NCBI GenBank assembly: GCA_028689545.1
Contig: JAQVCX010000007.1
Coordinates: 881-64,880 of the forward strand
Direction of reading: 5' to 3'
From: Parabacteroides sp.
Lineage (GTDB): Bacteria > Bacteroidota > Bacteroidia > Bacteroidales > Tannerellaceae
Length of the DNA: 64,000 nucleotides
Shown: piece after piece, positions 52,856 to 64,000 of the stretch
Layout: each line of letters opens with the position of its first letter
How positions within the stretch are numbered: the stretch's first letter is position 1
Program-made: the position numbers and the translations under genes
The notes under the pieces: model-generated
Seen by the model: the letters and a program-made list of their open reading frames with translations, nothing else
Told to the model about the DNA's origin: nothing
The model's database searches: none

Positions 52856-53896
52856 ATGAAGATGAGAAGCTTTCTTTTTATAGGCATAGCGGGCTTGTTG
52901 TCCGCTTGTAGCACGATTAATTATGTGGGTATCGAGACGTATAATCCCGCGGAGGTGACGTTTCCCGGAAATGTCGCCAAGGTACTTATCGTGAACAATG
53001 CCGCCCCCCAGCCGGAGGACGCGGGTTACGAATATACCTTGCGGGGAGAAAAGCAGGATACTTGCAAGGCGAAAGCGGATAGTGCGCTGTTCGACGCTTG
53101 CCGTACTTTAGGGGAGGCTATCGTGGAGGCTTCTTATTTTAACGATGTATTGTTTTACCATGACGCGGTTCGAAAAGATGATCAGGCGTTTCTGGATACG
53201 AAACTAACCCAGGGGCAAGTAGCGTCGCTATGCGATGAGACCGGGGCGGATGCGGTTATCTCTATCGACCGCTTGCTGTTCGATATGAAGAAAAACGTAG
53301 GTACCTTGGGCGAAGGGTATGTGATGGGGATGATCGATGTGCGGATGGCTGGCGTGATACGCGGTTACATACCCGATCGTGAGGCTCCACTGGCGACGGT
53401 ACATATGAACGATAGCATCTATTGGGCGGAAAGCGCGGACTTTGTGCCGATCTTGGATAAGATATTGCCCTCTCCGGAAAACGCTTTGCGTGGGGCGGGT
53501 AAATATTTCGGGGCGAAGGTCTACGCTAATTTTGTCCCTCATTGGGAGAAGGAGACCCGTTGGTACTTTACCGGAATGGGAGCGCGTTGGAAAGAGGCTT
53601 CCGTTTATGCGGCCAACGAGAAATGGGATCTGGCGGAAGATCGTTGGTCCGGGCTTTACCGGGGTACGGAAAGCTGGAAAAGCCGGGCGAAGGCGGCCTC
53701 TAATCTGGCCCTATGCCATGAGATGAAAGGAGATTTAAAAGAGGCCTATGAGTGGGCTCATAAATCTTACGATTTGTTCAAGCGTAATAGCGGCGATAAT
53801 GATAAGAGTACCAAATTATTGGAACTCTATGTGCAGGCGCTGGCCGAGCGGATTCGTTCCGATAAGAAACTAAATGTGCAATTTGGCGAGGATTAA
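52856..53896 (+). CDS. Lipoprotein with C-terminal TPR-like helices (DUF6340-like)
   Basis: Lipobox 'LSAC'; 'NLALCHEMKGDLKEAYEWA'. Confidence 0.7.
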   Translation: MKMRSFLFIGIAGLLSACSTINYVGIETYNPAEVTFPGNVAKVLIVNNAAPQPEDAGYEYTLRGEKQDTCKAKADSALFDACRTLGEAIVEASYFNDVLFYHDAVRKDDQAFLDTKLTQGQVASLCDETGADAVISIDRLLFDMKKNVGTLGEGYVMGMIDVRMAGVIRGYIPDREAPLATVHMNDSIYWAESADFVPILDKILPSPENALRGAGKYFGAKVYANFVPHWEKETRWYFTGMGARWKEASVYAANEKWDLAEDRWSGLYRGTESWKSRAKAASNLALCHEMKGDLKEAYEWAHKSYDLFKRNSGDNDKSTKLLELYVQALAERIRSDKKLNVQFGED

Positions 53897-53958
53897 CGGC
53901 GTTATTCGCTGAATTATTATTACTTTTGACGCATATTCGAATAAAGGAGAATAAATAT

Positions 53959-54420
53959 ATGAACGCAAATATAGCAAAGGTTCAATCCCTCATCGAGAAC
54001 GCTTTTACGTCGGCTATCGAAAAGCTGACCAAGGATGAGTCCGGTAATTTTATAAGCGACTTATACGTGCAGGTCGATGCGGAAAGCGGAGAGCTGCAAA
54101 TCTATGATGACGAGGAAAAGCTGATCGAAAAGATCATTATCTTCGATTGGGTGAACTCGAACGAGGAGGAAGATGTATTCAATAAGCGGGTTGCCGCTTC
54201 GGTTAAGGCGGTTCTTACGATCTTATCCACCAAGAATGTTTTTGACGCTCCCCGGTTTATGAAACCTCTTTCCGTTAGCTTGACTGACGAGGATTTCGTT
54301 GTTATAGAAGAGCTTATCTTTATAGACGATGATATGCTTCGTTTGGACGATCCTCTATTGAATGATTTAGATGCAGATTTAGATGATTTTTTAGCGAATC
54401 TTCTTGCAGATGTCAAATAA
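53959..54420 (+). CDS. Conserved acidic hypothetical protein
   Basis: Open frame with an acidic C-terminus. The track's TTG (53926) is inside the TACTTTTG box (53921-53928); ATG 53959 is preferred. Confidence 0.7.
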   Translation: MNANIAKVQSLIENAFTSAIEKLTKDESGNFISDLYVQVDAESGELQIYDDEEKLIEKIIIFDWVNSNEEEDVFNKRVAASVKAVLTILSTKNVFDAPRFMKPLSVSLTDEDFVVIEELIFIDDDMLRLDDPLLNDLDADLDDFLANLLADVK

Positions 54421-54459
54421 ACCCTGTATCTTTGCGCCCGAAATAAAGGAACAAATGTT

Positions 54460-54532
<73 letters not shown>

Positions 54533-54538
54533 CACGAT

Positions 54539-54573
54539 AAAAGGCAGTTATCTAAAAGGTAGCTGCCTTTTTT
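54539..54573 (+). terminator. Terminator after tRNA-Thr
   Basis: AAAAGGCAGTTATCT...AGGTAGCTGCCTTTTTT. Confidence 0.85.
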
Positions 54574-54633
54574 GTTATTCTCCCAGCCCGAACGTATTCT
54601 AAACAAATAAAAAGTTCTTATTACTTGCACGAT

Positions 54634-54655
54634 ATACATATGTGTATTATATTTG
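54634..54655 (+). promoter_or_regulatory. Cassette promoter with a candidate operator
   Basis: TATATTTG at 54648-54655, immediately preceded by ATACA-N4-TGTAT (54634-54647). Confidence 0.55.
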
Positions 54656-54671
54656 TAGTGTCAGTTAAACA

Positions 54672-54851
54672 ATGATGAACCAAGAACAAGAGCTAAAGGC
54701 TCAGATAAAACAAGTGGACAGAAATCTATTGTTTTATTCTTCTTATTGGAATCTTTTGCAAGAACAGGGGATACGGAAAGAAGAACTCTTCAGAAGGTTA
54801 GATGTTTTGTTAGACAAGCGTTTATCTTTGACAAAAGAGTTGAAAGGTTAA
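54672..54851 (+). CDS. 59-aa hypothetical helical protein (absent from the ORF track)
   Basis: MMNQEQELKAQIKQVDRNLLFYSSYWNLLQEQGIRKEELFRRLDVLLDKRLSLTKELKG*; starts 16 nt after a consensus -7 box and fills the space before the next gene. Confidence 0.7.
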   Translation: MMNQEQELKAQIKQVDRNLLFYSSYWNLLQEQGIRKEELFRRLDVLLDKRLSLTKELKG

Positions 54852-54909
54852 TCAAGCTCCCCCTTAGTGGGGGAGCAAACTGACTAATTTTCATCAAAAA
54901 GGAGGTAAT

Positions 54910-55347
54910 ATGGCTGATTATGAGGAGTTGAAAAAAGAGTTTCTTTCACAACGGACAGAGTTTCGTCAATCTGAAGAGATTGACGAAAGTGCTTTCCAGG
55001 AACGTATAAGGCAATATTTGGCCACGAAAACGCCGGAAGAAGCTCAGATGTTAGCTGATATCATGCTGGAGTGCGTGAATGAAGATATTGAAAAGACAGA
55101 CGATTTAATCCATGAGGCTCGGTTAAGAAAGGTATTGTCAAAAGTTTATGATGCGGTTTCATGGTCTTATATTGCTAAGGCTTATTTTGGAAAAAGCCGT
55201 TCCTGGCTGAATCAGCGTTTGAATAGTTTTATTGTAAATGGGAAAGAGGCTCAATTTACTCAGGAGGAATTAAAGCAGTTACAAAGAGCTCTGCTGGACC
55301 TTAGTGGAGATATAAAGAATACCGCTCTTGAATTGGGCGTTCATTGA
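54910..55347 (+). CDS. DUF5053-like protein (C-terminal HTH-like domain)
   Basis: 'VSWSYIAKAYFGKSRSWLNQRLN...VNGKEAQFT.EEL' matches the DUF5053 pattern as I recall it; acidic N-terminus. Confidence 0.75.
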   Translation: MADYEELKKEFLSQRTEFRQSEEIDESAFQERIRQYLATKTPEEAQMLADIMLECVNEDIEKTDDLIHEARLRKVLSKVYDAVSWSYIAKAYFGKSRSWLNQRLNSFIVNGKEAQFTQEELKQLQRALLDLSGDIKNTALELGVH

Positions 55348-55370
55348 TAACTGACATTATCAAATCGGGG

Positions 55371-55402
55371 AAGGCTTGGCTGTTTGTCAAGCCTTTTCTT
55401 TG
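55371..55402 (+). terminator. Terminator of the two-gene cassette
   Basis: AAGGCTTGGC-TGTTT-GTCAAGCCTT followed by TTCTTTG. Confidence 0.8.
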
Positions 55403-55556
55403 TACGATATAGGCGGCTGACATTTCCAGTGATTTTATATCTATAAGGAAGCCGGACGGGGCCAAGGTGGTTTCCGACCCGGATTGATATGCTATAAAAT
55501 AACATAGGCGGCAACCCTTGCGGATTGTCGCCTAATTGTTTATTGTTGTTAATTCG

Positions 55557-55630
55557 TGGAGCATATCGGACTCGAACCGATCACCTACAGACTGCCAGTC
55601 TGTCGCTCTAGCCAGATGAGCTAATGCCCC
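55557..55630 (-). tRNA. tRNA-Ala(GGC)
   Basis: GGGGCAT/ATGCTCC acceptor stem with G3-U70, anticodon loop CTGGCAG, GGTTCGAGTCC. Confidence 0.97.
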
Positions 55631-55710
55631 TTTTGTTAATTCAAGTGCAAATATAAGGCTTTTCTTGATATATGCGTTATCTTTGTGTAAGAATTTTGAA
55701 GTAAAAGAAG

Positions 55711-56025
55711 ATGATTATTTATAATACGACTTTTCATATCCATAAGGATATCGTGGATGAATGCCTGGAATATCTGAAGAATAGTTATATACCGAAAGCC
55801 TCCGAGAGCGGTATCCTGTATAGCCCTTATTTGAGACGTATCTTGGATTCGCGGAATGAGGAAGGTGAAAGCTTCTCCGTGCAGTTCCATACGAGAGATA
55901 TCGACTCGCTGAACGAGTGGGTGCGCAAGGAGGGTGGAGCCTTGCAGCAAGATTTGGTAGGACGTTATAAAGAGAAGATCGCCGGATTCTCTACCCTGTT
56001 GGAAGATATAGAATTGCCTAAATGA
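55711..56025 (+). CDS. DUF4286-family protein
   Basis: '[10 protein letters not shown]...YIP...SFSVQF'; ATGA overlap with ruvC. Confidence 0.75.
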
Positions 56026-56579
56026 TAAAGGATCGCATTATATTAGGCATAGACCCCGGTACGATCGTGATGGGATACGGAATCTTGAGGATCGAGGGGA
56101 ATAAGCCGAAGCTGGAGGCTATGGGCATCCTGCAATTGAATAAATATGAGGATCATTACCTGCGTCTGCGTAAGATATTCGAACGGGTCTTGGCCTTGAT
56201 CGATCAATACCATCCGGACGAGTTGGCTATCGAGGCGCCTTTCTTCGGGAAAAACGTACAGAGTATGTTGAAACTCGGTAGGGCGCAAGGGGTAGCGATG
56301 GCGGCGGCCTTGGAGCGGGATATCCCGATCTTCGAGTACGCCCCGCTAAAGATCAAGCTCTCGATCACCGGGAATGGAAATGCGGCGAAAGAGCAAGTGG
56401 CCGGTATGCTGCAACGCTATCTGAAGATACCGGAAGAGTCCATGCTCCCGCAACTAGACGCTACGGATGGGTTGGCGGCGGCTGTTTGTCATTATTTCCA
56501 AACCAATAACCCAATCTCGGAAAAGAAGTATACGGGATGGAAGGATTTCATCGCGAAGAATCCGGGGAAAGTGAGATGA
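56022..56579 (+). CDS. ruvC: Holliday junction resolvase
   Basis: 'ILGIDPG', 'AIEAPF', 'KLGRAQG', 'EYAP', 'GNAAKEQV', 'DATDGLA'. Confidence 0.97.
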
Positions 56580-56692: not shown

Positions 56693-58027
56693 TTACACGA
56701 TTCCTTGTGCCATCATAGCTTTCGCTACTTTCATGAAGCCGGCGATATTCGCGCCTTTTACATAATTGATGTATTTGCCATCGTTGCCGTGAGTTACGCA
56801 TTGTTCGTGGATCGCGCTCATGATCTGATGTAATTTAGCGTCTACCTCGGCGGCGGTCCATGAGATATGCATAGCGTTCTGGGTCATCTCCAATCCGGAA
56901 GTAGCCACGCCACCCGCGTTGACAGCCTTACCCGGAGCGAATAATTGCTTATGCTCGATGAATACGTCCACAGCCTCTGCCGTACAACCCATGTTAGAAA
57001 CCTCCGCTACGCACAAGGTCTTATTCTCGATCAACTTACGAGCGTCAGCCTCGTTCAGCTCATTCTGGGTAGCGCATGGCAATGCTATATCTACTTTCTG
57101 CTCCCAAGGTTTCTTGCCAGGATAGAAGGTAGAGCCCGGGAATTTATCAGCGTAAGGAGCCGCTATATCATTTCCTGAGTTACGCAATTCCAACATATAA
57201 TCGATCTTCTCGCCGGAGATACCCGCCGGATCATAGATATAACCGTCAGGACCGGAGATCGTAACCACCTTCGCGCCTAACTCGGTTGCCTTTGTAGCGG
57301 CACCCCAAGCCACGTTGCCGAAGCCGGAGATAGCGACCGTCTTATCCTTTATATCGATTCCGTGAGTCTCCAACATTTGATGTACGAAGTAAAGGGCGCC
57401 GAAGCCGGTAGCTTCCGGACGAAGGATAGAACCTCCGAACTCCATACCCTTACCCGTGAACGTACCCGTGTTTTCGCGAGCCAATTTCTTGTACATACCG
57501 TACATATAACCTACCTCACGGCCACCTACGCCTATATCGCCTGCCGGAACGTCTCTGTCCGGACCTAAGTTACGCCATAATTCAAGAATAAACGCTTGGC
57601 AGAAACGCATGATCTCGGCATCGCTCTTTCCTCTCGGGGCGAAATCGGAACCACCTTTGCCACCACCCATCGGAAGGGTTGTCAAGGCGTTTTTAAATGT
57701 TTGCTCGAATCCTAAGAATTTCAAGATAGACAGGTTAACGGACGGGTGGAAACGAATACCTCCCTTGTACGGGCCGATTGCGTTGTTGAACTGAACTCGG
57801 TATCCCAAGTTAACTTGTATCTCTCCTTTATCATCCACCCAAGGCACACGGAAAGTGAAAATACGTTCCGGTTCAACTAGGCGTTCAATGATTTTCGCTT
57901 TCTCAAATTCCGGATGTTGGTTGTACACTTCCTCGATTGATAAAAGCACTTCTTTTACTGCTTGCAAATACTCCTTTTCACCCGGATGTTTTGCCTCTAG
58001 CGCTGATAAGATAACTTCAGTCTTCAT
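56693..58027 (-). CDS. gdhA: NAD(P)-dependent glutamate dehydrogenase, Bacteroides GdhA type
   Basis: 'GPYKGGIRFH', 'LPMGGGKGG', 'DVPAGDIGVG', 'GFGNVA', 'ISGPDG', 'EVSNMG'. Confidence 0.95.
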   Translation of the reverse strand: MKTEVILSALEAKHPGEKEYLQAVKEVLLSIEEVYNQHPEFEKAKIIERLVEPERIFTFRVPWVDDKGEIQVNLGYRVQFNNAIGPYKGGIRFHPSVNLSILKFLGFEQTFKNALTTLPMGGGKGGSDFAPRGKSDAEIMRFCQAFILELWRNLGPDRDVPAGDIGVGGREVGYMYGMYKKLARENTGTFTGKGMEFGGSILRPEATGFGALYFVHQMLETHGIDIKDKTVAISGFGNVAWGAATKATELGAKVVTISGPDGYIYDPAGISGEKIDYMLELRNSGNDIAAPYADKFPGSTFYPGKKPWEQKVDIALPCATQNELNEADARKLIENKTLCVAEVSNMGCTAEAVDVFIEHKQLFAPGKAVNAGGVATSGLEMTQNAMHISWTAAEVDAKLHQIMSAIHEQCVTHGNDGKYINYVKGANIAGFMKVAKAMMAQGIV

Positions 58028-58064
58028 AGCATTTATTTTCTTTAAAAGGATAACATTGTGTTGG

Positions 58065-58195
58065 CAAATGTAGGTAATTCTTTGAAATGACCAAGAGTTT
58101 TGCTTACTTTTTATCAGTGAAAACGTAAAAATCTTCAGTTAGAGTCAGAATGCGCATTTTCGTGTTTCAATAGTTATTATTTTTCCTTACATTTG
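58065..58195. promoter_or_regulatory. Divergent promoters for gdhA and the dikinase-like gene
   Basis: TACATTTG on the minus strand (58065-58072) and TACATTTG on the plus strand (58188-58195). Confidence 0.65.
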
Positions 58196-58222
58196 ACTCG
58201 TATAATTCTATCAGAATCTATT

Positions 58223-61177
58223 ATGAGCGGTATACCGAACTTGAAAGACTTGGTGTTTAGAGACACCCCGTTTGCCAACCTAATGAATAAGCGTATATAT
58301 AATGTATTGCTTATCGCGACGAAATATGATTCCTTCATGCTGGAAGATGACGGGCGTGTGGACGAGCAGATATTTAACGAATATACCTCCTTAAGCCTCC
58401 GTTATCCACCCCGGTTCATGCAGGTGACTACCGAGGAGGAGGCTTTGAATGAGTTGAAGAACCGGAACTTCGAATTGATCATTTGCATGCCGAATATGGA
58501 TAACCGGGATATATTCGCGGCGGCGAGCGAGATCAAGGTGCATTATCCGAATATCCCGATCGTCGTATTGACCCCTTTCTCGAAAGAGGTGTCTAAGCGG
58601 ATCGAGGGCGAGGATCTGAGCGCTATCGATTACGTGTTCAGCTGGTTGGGTAACTCGGAGTTGTTGCTGGCGATTATCAAACTGATCGAGGATAAGATGA
58701 ACGCTCCGGACGATACGGCCAGCGTGGGCGTACAGATCATCCTGTTGGTGGAGGATTCCATCCGTTTTTATTCGTCCGCTTTGCCGCATCTGTATAAGTT
58801 CGTCTTGGAGCAAAGCCAGATGTTCGCGAAGGAGGCGTTAAACGATCACCAGCGTACGTTGCGTATGCGGGGCCGTCCAAAGATCAAGTTGGCTCGGAAC
58901 TATGAGGAGGCGGTGCGTATCTTTAATCAGTATCGGGATAATATGTTGGGCATTATCTCGGATATGAGTTTTATGCACGATGGTGTGAAAGATCCGTATG
59001 CCGGTTATAAGTTCGGGCAGTATGTGCGGAAAACGGGTTTGATCATTCCTTTCGTGCTGGAATCCTCGGAGGCCAGCAATCATGTGTACGCGAAGGAGCT
59101 GCACGCCTCGTTTATCGATAAGAATTCCAAGAGCTACCCGCAGGATTTGAAAAAGAAGATCATGCAGCGTTTCGGCTTTGGCGATTTCGTGATCTTGAAT
59201 CCGCATACGAAGGAGGAGATCATGCGTATCAAGAATTTGAAAGATCTTCAAAAGAAAGTCTTCCAGATTCCCGACGATTCGTTGGTTTACCATCTCTCCC
59301 GGAACCATTTCTCCCGTTTCTTTTATTCGCGTGCCATGTTTCCGCCTGCCGAGGTGTTGAAGCATGTAGACGTGAGTGACTATAAGGATATGGATGAGGC
59401 CCGGAAATTGATTTTCGACTTGATCGTGCAATATCGCCGGATGAAGAACACCGGTGTCGTGGCGGTTTATCAGAAGGATCGTTTTGATGAGTATAGTAAT
59501 TTCGCCCGTATCGGCGACGGCTCGCTGGGAGGTAAGGGACGGGGTCTTGCCTTTATCGGCGCGATGGTGAAGCGATACCCTAAGCTGGAGAGTGATAATT
59601 TTGCCGTGAATATCCCGAAGACGGTCGTGATCTGTACCGATATCTTCGACGAGTTTATGGAGACGAACGAGTTGTATCCCGTAGCGCTGGGCGATGCGGA
59701 CGACGAGACGATCCTCCGCTATTTCTTGCGGGCCAGTCTGCCCGCCCGGCTCATCGAGGACTTGATGGCTTTCTTCGATGTGGTGAAAAGCCCGGTAGCC
59801 GTGCGTTCTTCCAGCTTGCTGGAAGATTCGCATTACCAGCCTTTCGCCGGGATCTATTCTACGTATATGGTGCCTAAGATCGAGGAGAAATACGATATGC
59901 TCCGTACGGTGAGCGACGCTATCAAGGCGGTGTATGCCTCTGTGTTTTACAAGGATAGTAAGGCGTATATGACGGCTACTTCCAACTTGATCGACCAAGA
60001 GAAGATGGCTGTCGTCTTGCAGGAGGTGGTGGGCTCCCGTTATAAGGATCATTTTTATCCGACGATGTCGGGCGTGGCTCGTTCCTTGAATTTCTATCCG
60101 ATCGGTAACGAGAAGGCGGAGGATGGGATCGCGAATATCGCCTTGGGATTGGGTAAATATATCGTCGATGGCGGGCAAACCTTGCGTTTCTCTCCCCGGC
60201 ATCCCCATAGCATCTTGCAGATGAGTACGATGGATTTCGCCCTCAGGGAGACGCAGACTCGTTTCTATGCCTTGGATTTGAAGAATATGGCGGAGGCTTT
60301 CTCGGTAAATGATGCCTTCAACTTGGTGAAACTGGGCTTGAAGGAGGCGGATGCCGAGGGTTCCTTGAAATATATTGTCTCTACCTACGATCCGTACGAT
60401 CAGATTATCCGTGACGGTTATTATCCGGGGGGTCGTAAGATCCTCTCTTTCGTGAATATCTTGCAGCACGACGTGTTCCCGCTGGCGGATACGCTGGATC
60501 AGATCTTACGGATCGGGCAGCAGGAGATGGGGCGTCCGGTCGAGATTGAGTTCGCGGTCAATATGGATCCGTCGGATCATACGCGGGCTACTTTCTATCT
60601 GTTGCAAATCCGTCCGATCGTGGATAATAAGGAGATCATGGACGAGGATCTGACCTTGGTGAGGAACGAGGAGACGATGCTTTCTTCTACCAGCGTCTTG
60701 GGGCATGGTATCATTGGCGACGTGCAGGATATTATATATGTAAAGACGGGCGCGTTTAATTCGTCCAATAATCAGTTGATCGCTTATGAGATCGAGAAGA
60801 TGAACCGCTCGTTTACCGACCAGGAGAAAGGATACGTATTGGTGGGTCCCGGCCGGTGGGGGAGTAGCGACTCTTGGTTAGGTATCCCGGTGAAATGGCC
60901 GCATATCAGTAACGCGCGGGTGATCGTGGAATGTGGCTTGGAGAGCTATCGGATAGACCCGAGCCAAGGTACGCATTTCTTCCAGAACCTGACCTCCTTC
61001 GGCGTGGGCTATTTTACGATCAATCCCTTCAAGGGGGATGGTTGGTTCGATGAGGCGTTCCTCAATGCGCTACCTGCTATGGAAGAGACGGAATACCTTC
61101 GCCATGTGCATTTTGATGCTCCGATCACCATCAAGATGGACGGGAAGCGAAGTCTGGGTGTGGTGCTGAAGCCTTGA
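58223..61177 (+). CDS. Receiver-like domains + PEP-synthase/PPDK ATP-grasp domain + His-swivel-like domain; function unknown
   Basis: 'LLVEDS...ISD...LES...FIDK' receiver; 'LGGKGRGL', 'VAVRSSSLLED', 'FAGIYST', 'EIEFAV', 'LLQIRP' ATP-grasp; C-terminal 'GPGRWGS' and 'SQGTHFF'. Start trimmed to ATG 58223. Confidence 0.85.
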   Translation: MSGIPNLKDLVFRDTPFANLMNKRIYNVLLIATKYDSFMLEDDGRVDEQIFNEYTSLSLRYPPRFMQVTTEEEALNELKNRNFELIICMPNMDNRDIFAAASEIKVHYPNIPIVVLTPFSKEVSKRIEGEDLSAIDYVFSWLGNSELLLAIIKLIEDKMNAPDDTASVGVQIILLVEDSIRFYSSALPHLYKFVLEQSQMFAKEALNDHQRTLRMRGRPKIKLARNYEEAVRIFNQYRDNMLGIISDMSFMHDGVKDPYAGYKFGQYVRKTGLIIPFVLESSEASNHVYAKELHASFIDKNSKSYPQDLKKKIMQRFGFGDFVILNPHTKEEIMRIKNLKDLQKKVFQIPDDSLVYHLSRNHFSRFFYSRAMFPPAEVLKHVDVSDYKDMDEARKLIFDLIVQYRRMKNTGVVAVYQKDRFDEYSNFARIGDGSLGGKGRGLAFIGAMVKRYPKLESDNFAVNIPKTVVICTDIFDEFMETNELYPVALGDADDETILRYFLRASLPARLIEDLMAFFDVVKSPVAVRSSSLLEDSHYQPFAGIYSTYMVPKIEEKYDMLRTVSDAIKAVYASVFYKDSKAYMTATSNLIDQEKMAVVLQEVVGSRYKDHFYPTMSGVARSLNFYPIGNEKAEDGIANIALGLGKYIVDGGQTLRFSPRHPHSILQMSTMDFALRETQTRFYALDLKNMAEAFSVNDAFNLVKLGLKEADAEGSLKYIVSTYDPYDQIIRDGYYPGGRKILSFVNILQHDVFPLADTLDQILRIGQQEMGRPVEIEFAVNMDPSDHTRATFYLLQIRPIVDNKEIMDEDLTLVRNEETMLSSTSVLGHGIIGDVQDIIYVKTGAFNSSNNQLIAYEIEKMNRSFTDQEKGYVLVGPGRWGSSDSWLGIPVKWPHISNARVIVECGLESYRIDPSQGTHFFQNLTSFGVGYFTINPFKGDGWFDEAFLNALPAMEETEYLRHVHFDAPITIKMDGKRSLGVVLKP

Positions 61178-61243: not shown

Positions 61244-61978
61244 TTATAAAGTGTGCACCCATTCCTCGGCCAGTGCCAGTGTCTCCGGTTTGCCGATATC
61301 CAATAGCTTTAGGTTATCTGCCATATAAGCCCGGATATCGGTCTTGGCGCAAATGGCCAGGTAGAAGTTGATGATAGAGAACTTTCCGGTCCATTCTTCC
61401 ATCAACTCCAATATTCTGGGCGAGAGCACGTGGATTCCGCTAAAGGCGTACTCGTTGTATTGGTCCGGGTCGAAATAGGGATAATACGATTTCACCTCGC
61501 CGGTCTCATGATTTCGCCAACCGCACAGTCTGTTCTCCTTATCAAATAATAGATAACGCGAGGTGTTACGCTGGCTGACGAGCAGGGTAGCCAACGGGTT
61601 CGTTTGTACATGGGTATCGTATAGTTTCTTCAGGTCCACGTTCGATAAGATATCGACATTATGGATCAAGAAAGGTTCGTCTCCGCATAATAGAGAAGAG
61701 GCCTTCTTGATTCCTCCTCCCGTATCCAGCAGATAGTCGCTCTCGTCCGAGATCTCGATCTGGACACCGAAGTGGTTGTTCGCCTCCAGAAAATCCACGA
61801 TCTGGTTGCTTAAATGATGGATATTGATCACGATCTGGTCGAAACCGGCGGATTTCAGTTTCAGTATGACGTGTTCTAGCATCGGTTTACCCCCGATAGG
61901 TATAAGCGCTTTTGGCGTGTGATCGGTTAACGGCTTCAGTCTGGATCCAGTACCGGCCGCGAAAATCATAGCTTTCAT
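61244..61978 (-). CDS. Sugar-1-phosphate nucleotidyltransferase (MurU-like)
   Basis: 'MKAMIFAAGTGSRLKPLTDHTPKALI', 'LDTGGGI', 'HNVD', 'DIGKPE'; ATGA overlap with the upstream kinase gene. Confidence 0.85.
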   Translation of the reverse strand: MKAMIFAAGTGSRLKPLTDHTPKALIPIGGKPMLEHVILKLKSAGFDQIVINIHHLSNQIVDFLEANNHFGVQIEISDESDYLLDTGGGIKKASSLLCGDEPFLIHNVDILSNVDLKKLYDTHVQTNPLATLLVSQRNTSRYLLFDKENRLCGWRNHETGEVKSYYPYFDPDQYNEYAFSGIHVLSPRILELMEEWTGKFSIINFYLAICAKTDIRAYMADNLKLLDIGKPETLALAEEWVHTL

Positions 61979-63405
61979 AATGTAGGGTTAAAGAGTTGTT
62001 CTATATTTTGTTCTCTATGTACTAAGTGCACTTTTACTCCGAATTTGGTGTTCAGATGTTCCGCTAGATGCTGCGCGGAGTAGACCGAACGGTGCTGCCC
62101 TCCCGTACATCCGAAACAAATCATCAAATTGGTGAATCCTCGATCCATATATCGTTTTACCGAGGCGTCTACGATATGATAGACATGCTCAAGGAAGTTC
62201 GTGATCTCCCCGTCATCCTCCAAGAACTGGATGACCGGCTCATCCAAACCGGTGAAATGATTGTAACGCTCGTATTTACCGGGATTGTTTATCGCGCGGC
62301 AATCGAATACGAATCCGCCTCCGTTTCCGCTGGGATCGTTCGGGATTCCTTTTTTGTAGGCGAAGCTCATGACCTTTACTTCCAGCATATGTTTCTGGAT
62401 ATCGTCCGTGAATTGTTTCAGCCCGGTCAGCTCGCGAAGTACGGAGCATAGATAGGGGTATTCCGGATAGTCATTCTTCAATAACTGCCGCAGGTTCTCT
62501 ATCGCGAACGGGACGCTTTGGATGAAGTGGGGTTTTTTCTCGAAATATCCCCGGAAACCATAAGCCCCCAATACCTGCAAGGTCCTAAACAGGACGAAAT
62601 GGCGCAGTTGGCTATGGAAATAGGCCTCGTCTACCGGGATATACTTACGTAGGGCCGTGATATAATCCGATAGTAACTCGTTTCGCAAGTCCTCCGGATA
62701 TTTCGCTTTCGCCTGCCAAAGGAAGGAAGCCACGTCGTAGTAGACCGGCCCTTTCCGTCCTCCCTGGAAATCGATAAACCAAGGCTCCCCGTCCTTTATC
62801 ATAACGTTTCTCGACTGGAAATCGCGGTACAGGAACGTGGCGGAAGAGCTACGCAACAATACGTCGCTCATCTTCAAGAAATCATCCTCCAGGCGGTTTT
62901 CCTGAAACTCCATCCCGGTAGCCTTCAGGAAACAGTACTTGAAATAATTCAAGTCCCAAAGGATAGACCGTTGGTTGAACTCGGCTTGCGGATGGCAATA
63001 CGAGAAATCGAAACCGTCGGATCCCAAGAACTGGATGTCGGGGAGCCGGGTGATCGTCTTGTGTAACAAACGGCGTTCCTCCTCGTCGAATACGCTGCTT
63101 CTACGGCCTTTCTCGATGGCGTCGAAAAGAAGCGTATCTCCTAAATCCTCTTGGATATAAAAAGAATGGTCGTTCGAGCTGGCATACACCTGCGGTACGG
63201 GCAAGCCTTTCTCCCGGAAATGTTTTGACATATAGATAAAAGCCTCGTTCTCCTCGGTAGAAGTGCCACTCACTCCAATCAATGTCTCCGGGCCTTTTAT
63301 CCTGAAATACCGGCGGTTAGAGCCGGACGAAGGTAGCTCCGTTATTTCCTCTGCCGGTGATTCGGTGTATGATTGGTATAGCCTCCTTAGTTCTTCTGTT
63401 ATCAT
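61975..63405 (-). CDS. APH-family (AmgK-like) sugar kinase fused to a RapZ C-terminal domain
   Basis: 'GSNRRYFR', 'EDLGD', 'YRDFQSRN', 'IDFQG'; C-terminal 'SFAYKKGIP...FVFDCR...NPG...FGCTGGQHRSV'. Confidence 0.85.
   Translation of the reverse strand: MITEELRRLYQSYTESPAEEITELPSSGSNRRYFRIKGPETLIGVSGTSTEENEAFIYMSKHFREKGLPVPQVYASSNDHSFYIQEDLGDTLLFDAIEKGRRSSVFDEEERRLLHKTITRLPDIQFLGSDGFDFSYCHPQAEFNQRSILWDLNYFKYCFLKATGMEFQENRLEDDFLKMSDVLLRSSSATFLYRDFQSRNVMIKDGEPWFIDFQGGRKGPVYYDVASFLWQAKAKYPEDLRNELLSDYITALRKYIPVDEAYFHSQLRHFVLFRTLQVLGAYGFRGYFEKKPHFIQSVPFAIENLRQLLKNDYPEYPYLCSVLRELTGLKQFTDDIQKHMLEVKVMSFAYKKGIPNDPSGNGGGFVFDCRAINNPGKYERYNHFTGLDEPVIQFLEDDGEITNFLEHVYHIVDASVKRYMDRGFTNLMICFGCTGGQHRSVYSAQHLAEHLNTKFGVKVHLVHREQNIEQLFNPTL

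Positions 63406-63578: not shown

Positions 63579-64000
<422 letters not shown>

Follow-up and report, generated by a model that had tools for sequence, protein, structure and literature searches.

A receiver-bearing ATP-grasp protein family with an invariant C-terminal histidine is linked to glutamate dehydrogenase genes in Bacteroidota and Cloacimonadota

Introduction

The phosphoenolpyruvate (PEP)-utilising dikinases, which include PPDK, PEP synthase (PpsA), rifampicin phosphotransferase (RPH), HpeHI/phenylphosphate synthase, and PigC/RedH, contain an ATP-grasp domain of the PPDK_N type, and, to our knowledge, each PPDK_N domain known so far works with a histidine carrier. Response regulators of the PleD type place two receivers (REC-REC) before an enzymatic output. 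Here, we describe a gene whose product joins two receiver-like domains to a PPDK_N-type ATP-grasp domain and to a C-terminal domain with an invariant histidine (H918). The gene is located in a 64,000-nt stretch of DNA from Parabacteroides sp. (assembly GCA_028689545.1, contig JAQVCX010000007.1), the whole of which is called the window, and it is transcribed divergently from gdhA, a glutamate dehydrogenase (GDH) gene. The letter T denotes this target gene and the members of its family, T' a second copy, and L-numbers the analyzed loci. The new finding here is a link between this family and glutamate/ELFV dehydrogenase genes, which holds across the Bacteroidota and the Cloacimonadota.

Ammonia is assimilated chiefly through GDH both in the Bacteroidales, the dominant group of the human gut, and in the amino-acid-fermenting Cloacimonadota, and the enzyme also provides a key step in the fermentation of amino acids. 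Bacteroides fragilis is described as having two GDHs with opposite regulation (PMC4539542). A preliminary description of the window, made from the sequence alone, had proposed that the target is a dikinase-driven signaling protein that may regulate nitrogen assimilation, and knew of no characterized member; in agreement with the latter, full-text literature searches found no characterized member of the family and no described link to GDH. Proteins of the family are annotated merely as 'PEP/pyruvate-binding domain-containing protein', and the one so named in Parabacteroides distasonis is 98% identical to the target protein.

Results

Domain architecture of the target protein

Translation of the reading frame reproduces the 984 residues, the VEDS, ISD, FIDK and SQGTHFF motifs, and the D247 and H918 codons given in the preliminary description, and its domain order, with a degenerate and a complete receiver, an ATP-grasp domain and no PEP/pyruvate barrel, is borne out by Pfam, Foldseek, and an AlphaFold model (Table 1). 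The model was built with an alignment of 76 orthologs and has a predicted local distance difference test score (pLDDT) of 84.9 and a predicted template modeling score (pTM) of 0.77. Conservation was followed in three sets, being these 76 Bacteroidales orthologs, 30 homologs of ~40% identity, and 23 representatives reaching down to 31% identity.

The N-terminal part of the model forms two (beta-alpha)5 units, for which Foldseek returned the tandem-receiver protein PleD and other REC-REC proteins (PDB codes: 1w25, 2v0n, 9g85, 3luf, and 3mf4; E 4e-6 to 4e-4). The first unit is degenerate because Met89 replaces the acceptor at the end of strand 3, where it also stands opposite the acceptor Asp in an alignment with FleR, and because the conserved Lys after strand 5 is missing. 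Its Pfam Response_reg match (residues 65-148) reaches 28.9 bits, under the 30.2 cut-off, and residues 60-166 match many receivers in a profile search against the PDB. The second unit has the complete catalytic set. Its motifs are VEDS (176-179), ISD (245-247, with the D247 codon at 58961-58963), and FIDK (297-300), and in the model E177/D178, D247, S281, and K300 are placed at the C-terminal ends of beta1, beta3, beta4, and beta5, respectively. This second receiver escapes Pfam Response_reg and has no sequence-profile match to receivers in the PDB; in the model it is extended by ~25 inserted residues past helix 1 and by a hairpin that follows strand 3 and D247.

The conservation of D247 and H918, which had been suggested as a check, is complete in the closer sets: E177, D178, D247, S281, K300, and H918 are all invariant in the 76 orthologs and the 30 homologs. 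Among the members compared, no loss of H918 is observed, and D247 is lost in a few distant ones. For example, P0129 and P0215 have lost D178 and D247 and retain H918. Between the receivers and the ATP-grasp domain lies a helical linker with a weak DUF5752-like match, and DUF5752 exceeds its cut-off in two relatives, P0200 and the protein of locus L099. No Pfam match to HisKA, HATPase_c, or HPt was found in the target protein.

The ATP-grasp domain is matched by PPDK_N (PF01326) at residues 434-810, with an E value of 2e-48 and 165.7 bits against a cut-off of 27, covering model positions 3-320 of 328. Its invariant motifs are GGKGRG (K438), VRSSSLLED (R528, E534, and D535), VEIEFA (E774 and E776), and LLQIRP (Q795 and R797), which we take to be the nucleotide- and Mg-binding residues of PPDK/PpsA, and because they are invariant the domain looks catalytic. 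This mapping of catalytic residues relies on motif recognition, as the hhalign alignment to PPDK N-termini did not extend beyond the GGKG stretch. The PDB profile matches of the domain are rifampin phosphotransferase and PEP synthase chains, and its best PDB match in Foldseek is the ATP-grasp subunit HpeI (E 6e-9). Also, the NCBIfam models of PEP synthase, PigC, and RPH align over only ~150-190 residues, with scores far under their cut-offs. Neither Pfam nor NCBIfam matched a PEP-utilizers domain, a PEP/pyruvate TIM barrel (PF02896), or another substrate domain in the target protein, and it has no rifampicin-binding-like insert.

A new C-terminal histidine domain

The region that follows defines a new, family-specific domain without a Pfam or PDB relative. 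It contains two nearly invariant loops, GxGRWGxxDxWLGIPV (in fuller form GPGRWGSSDxWLGIPV) and PSQG[ST]HFFQN. The SQGTHFF motif corresponds to residues 914-920, and H918 (codon 60974-60976) is the sole His that is invariant across the 23 representatives. In the AlphaFold model, H918 is found at the N terminus of a helix, and the loop before it is modeled with low confidence (pLDDT <50 at 914-916). A profile of the full family searched against the PDB reached only the ATP-grasp domain and the first receiver. The C-terminal domain co-occurs with the ATP-grasp domain in all paralog types.

In our own reading of the model, the order of strands and helices would resemble that of a swivelling beta/beta/alpha phospho-His domain. 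The hypothesis that this is a phospho-His domain finds support in the His carriers of PPDK_N enzymes, in H918 as the only invariant His, and in the constant pairing with the ATP-grasp domain.

Distribution and paralogs

The full-length architecture is present in 135 of the 151 Bacteroidales genomes sampled, often together with a second copy of 1150-1300 aa. In a phylum-wide sample, 41 of 201 genomes gave a match at E <=1e-20; within the same class, the other orders contributed one genome only, and in several families of other Bacteroidota classes each sampled genome has a match. With a 31%-identical representative as query, the family was found throughout Candidatus Cloacimonadota. In a library of clusters at 50% identity, 1206 clusters matched at E <=1e-30.

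Three paralog types depart from the target architecture. The longer Bacteroidales paralog, exemplified by L099:6130-9945 (+), adds an N-terminal PAS domain and ~200 residues to the REC-REC-PPDK_N-His arrangement; it often forms a tandem pair with the ortholog and can be adjacent to gdh (e.g. G330:C6, G256:C27, G255:C1, and G305:C62). A receiver-less paralog of 580 aa corresponds to the core alone and is 42% identical over residues 412-983. Finally, paralogs of ~930-1060 aa consist of an unannotated N-terminal region of ~345 aa, the PPDK_N/His core, and a C-terminal NTP_transf_2 domain (Pol-beta-type nucleotidyltransferase), and a divergent ELFV dehydrogenase gene comes immediately before them or, where the 580-aa core-only paralog is also present, before that paralog.

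Linkage to ELFV dehydrogenase genes

The target lies between two GDH genes, with gdhA divergent from it, as the preliminary description had it, and a search of its own genome adds that these two are the only ELFV dehydrogenase genes there. Synteny with gdh proved to recur among homologs in two phyla and in several gene orders. In the Bacteroidales, 80 loci were compared, with flanks of up to 10 kb, and neighbors were clustered on four genes at each side. A gdh gene is near the target in 26 of them, being divergent-upstream, upstream on the same strand, or downstream on the same strand, and gdh forms the top neighbor cluster with 22 loci, any other cluster reaching at most 9. Recurrent neighbors in the loci analyzed also include S9/DPP-IV and M28 peptidases, a POT peptide transporter, and alanine dehydrogenase.

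In other Bacteroidota classes, an ELFV dehydrogenase is directly upstream on the same strand in 21 of 24 loci, often in the order gdh-T-gdh-T-gdh. For example, in L119, L120, L132, and L133 three ELFV paralogs (~62%, 55%, and 31% identical to the gdhA of the window) alternate with two T paralogs, all encoded on the same strand. On the tree of T proteins, the type of the upstream gdh (~62% versus ~55% identical to the window gdhA) needs a single change. The gdh-T pair duplicated as a unit, with both copies keeping their linkage, and the match between the T tree and the gdh type shows retention of linkage, not co-evolution as such. Moreover, the receiver-less 580-aa and ~1060-aa paralogs come directly after a dehydrogenase of a third type, in L115-L117 as well as in 8 of 9 additional loci. 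In the Cloacimonadota, the order T-(T')-ELFV dehydrogenase is found in 6 of 7 loci.

Each genome has one to three ELFV genes, so that adjacency by chance would amount to a fraction of a percent, although related genomes in these counts are not independent. Because the linkage appears in varied gene orders and in two phyla, the data argue for selection on it. Phyletic co-occurrence, on the other hand, is uninformative because 148 of the 151 Bacteroidales genomes carry ELFV dehydrogenases.

Histidine kinase genes stand beside the target in three of the seven Cloacimonadota loci (L169, L170, and L174). In L169:1-5990 (+), T-T'-gdh is preceded on its strand by genes for a 1570-aa multi-PAS protein and, ending 10 bp upstream of T, for a 638-aa REC-PAS-HisKA-HATPase_c hybrid kinase. 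Both proteins are candidate cognate kinases.

The target gene belongs to a widespread PPDK_N subfamily, definable by the C-terminal His domain and the ELFV dehydrogenase partnership; the target has the ATP-grasp domain, the GxGRWG...SQG[ST]HFF domain, and the neighboring ELFV dehydrogenase.

The locus

The coordinates of the features are given in Table 1. The ATG at 58223 is the likely start of the target. A longer frame from a TTG at 58193 was disfavored because this codon falls inside the target-facing TACATTTG box, a -7-type element, and because homologs align only from residue ~6. This box and its identical counterpart facing gdhA are putative promoter elements, as judged from the published Bacteroides consensus. 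An antisense frame of 543 aa within the target (58838-60469, -) is most likely a by-product of coding-strand composition and not a gene. A genuine PPDK is encoded separately in the same genome.

Downstream of the target, the NTP_transferase and APH/RapZ_C genes look like a MurU/AmgK-like pair for the recycling of N-acetylmuramic acid (MurNAc). This pair was set aside from the system because just 3 of the 80 loci, from Parabacteroides or close relatives in every case, have it next to the target. On the other side of gdhA, plus-strand genes at 52856-56579 encode DUF6340/TPR, DUF5053, DUF4286, and RuvC proteins, and the order DUF4286-RuvC-gdhA is also seen in L035.

Table 1. Features of the target locus and related paralogs; positions refer to the window unless a locus is named
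Feature	Position	Strand	Basis
Target gene, 984 aa + stop; REC(pseudo)-REC-DUF5752-like-PPDK_N-His-domain protein	58223..61177	+	ORF (open reading frame), translation, Pfam, AlphaFold model
Receiver-like domain 1, degenerate (residues ~25-167)	58295..58723	+	Pfam sub-threshold match, FleR alignment, AlphaFold model, PleD matches
Receiver domain 2, complete catalytic set (residues ~170-316)	58730..59170	+	Invariant residues, strand ends in AlphaFold model, Foldseek
Helical linker domain, weakly DUF5752-like (residues ~317-430)	59171..59512	+	Pfam DUF5752, E 0.013
PPDK/PEP-synthase-type ATP-grasp nucleotide-binding domain (residues ~431-812)	59513..60658	+	Pfam PPDK_N, PDB profiles, Foldseek
Family-specific C-terminal domain (residues ~813-984)	60659..61174	+	Homolog alignment, AlphaFold model
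gdhA, 444-aa family-I glutamate dehydrogenase, divergent from target	56693..58027	-	Pfam ELFV_dehydrog E 2e-82, ELFV_dehydrog_N E 3e-51
Divergent intergenic region gdhA/target, 195 bp	58028..58222		Sequence reading
TACATTTG box facing target (putative)	58188-58195	+	Fits Bacteroidetes -7 consensus TAnnTTTG
TACATTTG box facing gdhA (putative)	58065-58072	-	Fits Bacteroidetes -7 consensus TAnnTTTG
Second glutamate dehydrogenase gene, C-terminal part, continuing past the window edge; 2.4 kb downstream of target	63579..64000	-	Pfam ELFV_dehydrog E 4e-49
NTP_transferase gene (244 aa), overlapping APH-fold kinase fused to RapZ C-terminal domain (476 aa)	61244-63405	-	
NTP_transf_2-bearing paralog	L115:4805-7987	-	
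NTP_transf_2-bearing paralog	L116:5143-7938	+	
NTP_transf_2-bearing paralogs	L177-L184		

Discussion

The reading that we favor, although with slightly less than even confidence, is that the target is a phosphotransfer enzyme that is controlled by its receivers and dedicated to GDH. The degenerate receiver and the complete one, with D247 as acceptor, would form a PleD-like tandem input module, and the output would be the ATP-grasp domain, always paired with the domain bearing H918. In this enzyme, ATP would be used by the ATP-grasp domain to load H918, in the manner of a dikinase, and the phosphoryl group would then pass from H918 to an external target. Because the ATP-grasp/His core is the dedicated genomic partner of ELFV-family amino-acid dehydrogenases, this target would most likely be GDH, or something that sets its activity, and ammonia assimilation and the deamination of amino acids would in this way come under post-translational control. 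Phosphorylation of D247 may toggle the output either on or off, with phosphate that probably comes from a histidine kinase of the conventional type or from a small phosphodonor. The assignment of the receiver as input and of the His core as output draws on the receiver-less paralogs that are linked to dehydrogenases, the losses of D247 with H918 kept, the adjacent histidine kinases, and the PAS and nucleotidyltransferase fusions. Taken together, these observations suggest that the receivers are a regulatory input and that the ATP-grasp/His core acts on the dehydrogenase or on its controller.

In its most far-reaching form, this proposal would make the family a new class of protein-directed dikinase/phosphotransferase, in which the ATP-grasp domain loads a non-canonical phospho-His domain that covalently modifies GDH (other ELFV dehydrogenases in the case of the paralogs), gated by a receiver, a PAS domain, or a nucleotidyltransferase. 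Such a class could also provide the missing mechanism of reversible GDH inactivation in Bacteroides and of the 'trans-acting gene(s)' discussed below. We regard this extended form as doubtful.

Several results weigh against the favored reading. A nearby gdh is absent in about two thirds of the 80 Bacteroidales loci, and genomes without the family still carry gdh, so that GDH can in general function without the family. Also, the linkage itself shows functional coupling, not that GDH is the direct substrate. No conserved histidine kinase neighbor was found in the 80 Bacteroidales loci. For the C-terminal domain, Pfam and PDB profiles gave no match, permissive Pfam scans of 30 C-terminal domains were equally empty, PF00391 (the GGxTSH-type swivel) did not match it in the own genome or in 40 other family-bearing genomes, and hhalign against 21 swivel domains reached at best P 0.05 and a probability of 1%, which is not significant. 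Since all these statistical tests were negative, the domain is not classed as PEP-utilizers and its phospho-His character is kept hypothetical; of what the preliminary description had said about it, the His stood, now as the invariant H918, and the phospho-His label went unconfirmed. Finally, we know of no PPDK_N-type enzyme that phosphorylates a protein, the known acceptors being small molecules or starch, and this leaves some weight to the small-molecule and sensory explanations considered below.

The preliminary description had put forward a self-contained phosphorelay, in which the ATP-grasp domain loads H918, the phosphate passes to D247 of the same protein without any GHKL kinase, and the phosphorylated receiver acts on GDH or on its expression. 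The joint invariance of H918 and of D247, with D178, S281, and K300, is consistent with such a relay. Moreover, receivers are chemically able to accept phosphate from phospho-His, the lack of a conserved histidine kinase neighbor, in the 80 Bacteroidales loci as in the 24 loci of other classes, speaks in its support, and a pTM of 0.77 implies that the domains pack into a compact assembly. However, even with no receiver at all, the His motif and the link to dehydrogenases persist in the 580-aa and 1060-aa paralogs, which points to a core function that needs no receiver in cis, and P0129 and P0215 keep H918 after the loss of D178 and D247. In addition, histidine kinase genes abut the gene in three of seven Cloacimonadota loci, the PAS-bearing paralog points to other inputs, and a relay that ends at the receiver would leave the protein with no output domain. 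A relay from H918 to its own D247 is, in consequence, less likely than the reading of the receiver as input, and we consider it quite unlikely.

A different possibility is that the target acts in amino-acid catabolism as a dikinase or kinase of small molecules under receiver regulation, and its substrate would be a dehydrogenase-related metabolite bound by the DUF5752-like or the C-terminal domain. Small molecules or glycans are the substrates of all characterized PPDK_N relatives that we know of (pyruvate, rifampicin, phenol or acetovanillone, prodigiosin precursors, and starch), the nearest profile and fold matches of the target are rifampin phosphotransferase and HpeI, and peptidases, a peptide transporter, and alanine dehydrogenase are among its neighbors. 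Nonetheless, the protein lacks a recognizable substrate-binding domain, be it a TIM barrel or a rifampicin-binding-like insert, its family pairs one-to-one with ELFV dehydrogenase paralogs instead of with a pathway operon, and the NTP_transf_2 fusion of one paralog resembles protein-modifying nucleotidyltransferases such as GlnE/GlnD. This makes a small-molecule enzyme unlikely. The protein could also be a non-catalytic sensor of ATP/AMP that only binds the nucleotide, with H918 in a structural or ligand-binding role, GDH controlled by binding, and the receiver as a second input. A stoichiometric partner of this kind would fit the tight one-to-one pairing with dehydrogenases and a C-terminal domain with no detectable relation to phospho-His domains. 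In this case, however, it would be difficult to explain why the residues expected for ATP-grasp catalysis (K438, R528, E534/D535, E774/E776, and Q795/R797), and likewise the GxGRWG and SQG[ST]H loops, are invariant over 31-100% identity, a pattern typical of active sites and not of binding scaffolds; a pure sensor is therefore very unlikely.

If the favored reading of a receiver-controlled phosphotransfer enzyme is correct, dikinase-type His phosphotransfer would extend to signaling or protein regulation. The partnership with dehydrogenases across phyla and paralogs makes an anonymous gene a concrete candidate for the post-translational control of nitrogen flux, and the family may account for old, unexplained observations on the regulation of Bacteroides GDH. 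Yamamoto et al. reportedly observed in 1987 a reversible inactivation of the B. fragilis GDH in vivo. Also, PMC4539542 cites a work of Baggio and Morrison (1996) according to whose title GdhA activity depends on trans-acting gene(s) downstream of gdhA; as the target is upstream of and divergent from gdhA, and the gene(s) named in that title are downstream, the correspondence is a lead only, and this difference adds to the points against our reading. The family combines known kinds of protein, a response regulator with enzymatic output and a dikinase-type ATP-grasp enzyme, and it could be categorically new if its target is the dehydrogenase protein.

Comparison with known systems

The closest relatives of the core are the PEP-utilising dikinases, which have in common with the target the PPDK_N ATP-grasp domain with its GGKG, VRSS..ED, E-x-E, and LQxR motifs. 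In the target too, a small domain follows the ATP-grasp, with a single invariant His placed past a flexible Gly-rich loop at the N terminus of a helix. However, the target has no detectable PF00391 swivel, TIM barrel, or rifampicin-binding domain, and it has instead two N-terminal receivers; moreover, its gene is linked to dehydrogenases and not to gluconeogenesis or antibiotic resistance.

With respect to the input, proteins of the PleD type likewise place one phosphorylatable and one degenerate receiver before an enzymatic output. In the target this order is reversed, the degenerate unit being the first, the output is an ATP-grasp/His module and not GGDEF, and the active receiver has the helix-1 insertion of ~25 residues and the hairpin, and is missed by Pfam Response_reg. 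Like the hybrid kinases of histidine kinase/HPt phosphorelays, the target carries both a conserved His and a receiver Asp on a single chain, but it is without HisKA, HATPase_c, and HPt, and its ATP-binding fold is ATP-grasp, not GHKL. Finally, the control of glutamine synthetase/PII by GlnE/GlnD offers an analogy, although no more than that, for a signal-controlled enzyme whose gene accompanies that of a central enzyme of ammonia assimilation, its presumed target. There is no sequence relation between GlnE/GlnD and the target, for which a His-mediated phosphoryl transfer is proposed, and GDH has no such established system; one T paralog, nevertheless, carries an NTP_transf_2 domain of the GlnE/GlnD superfamily.

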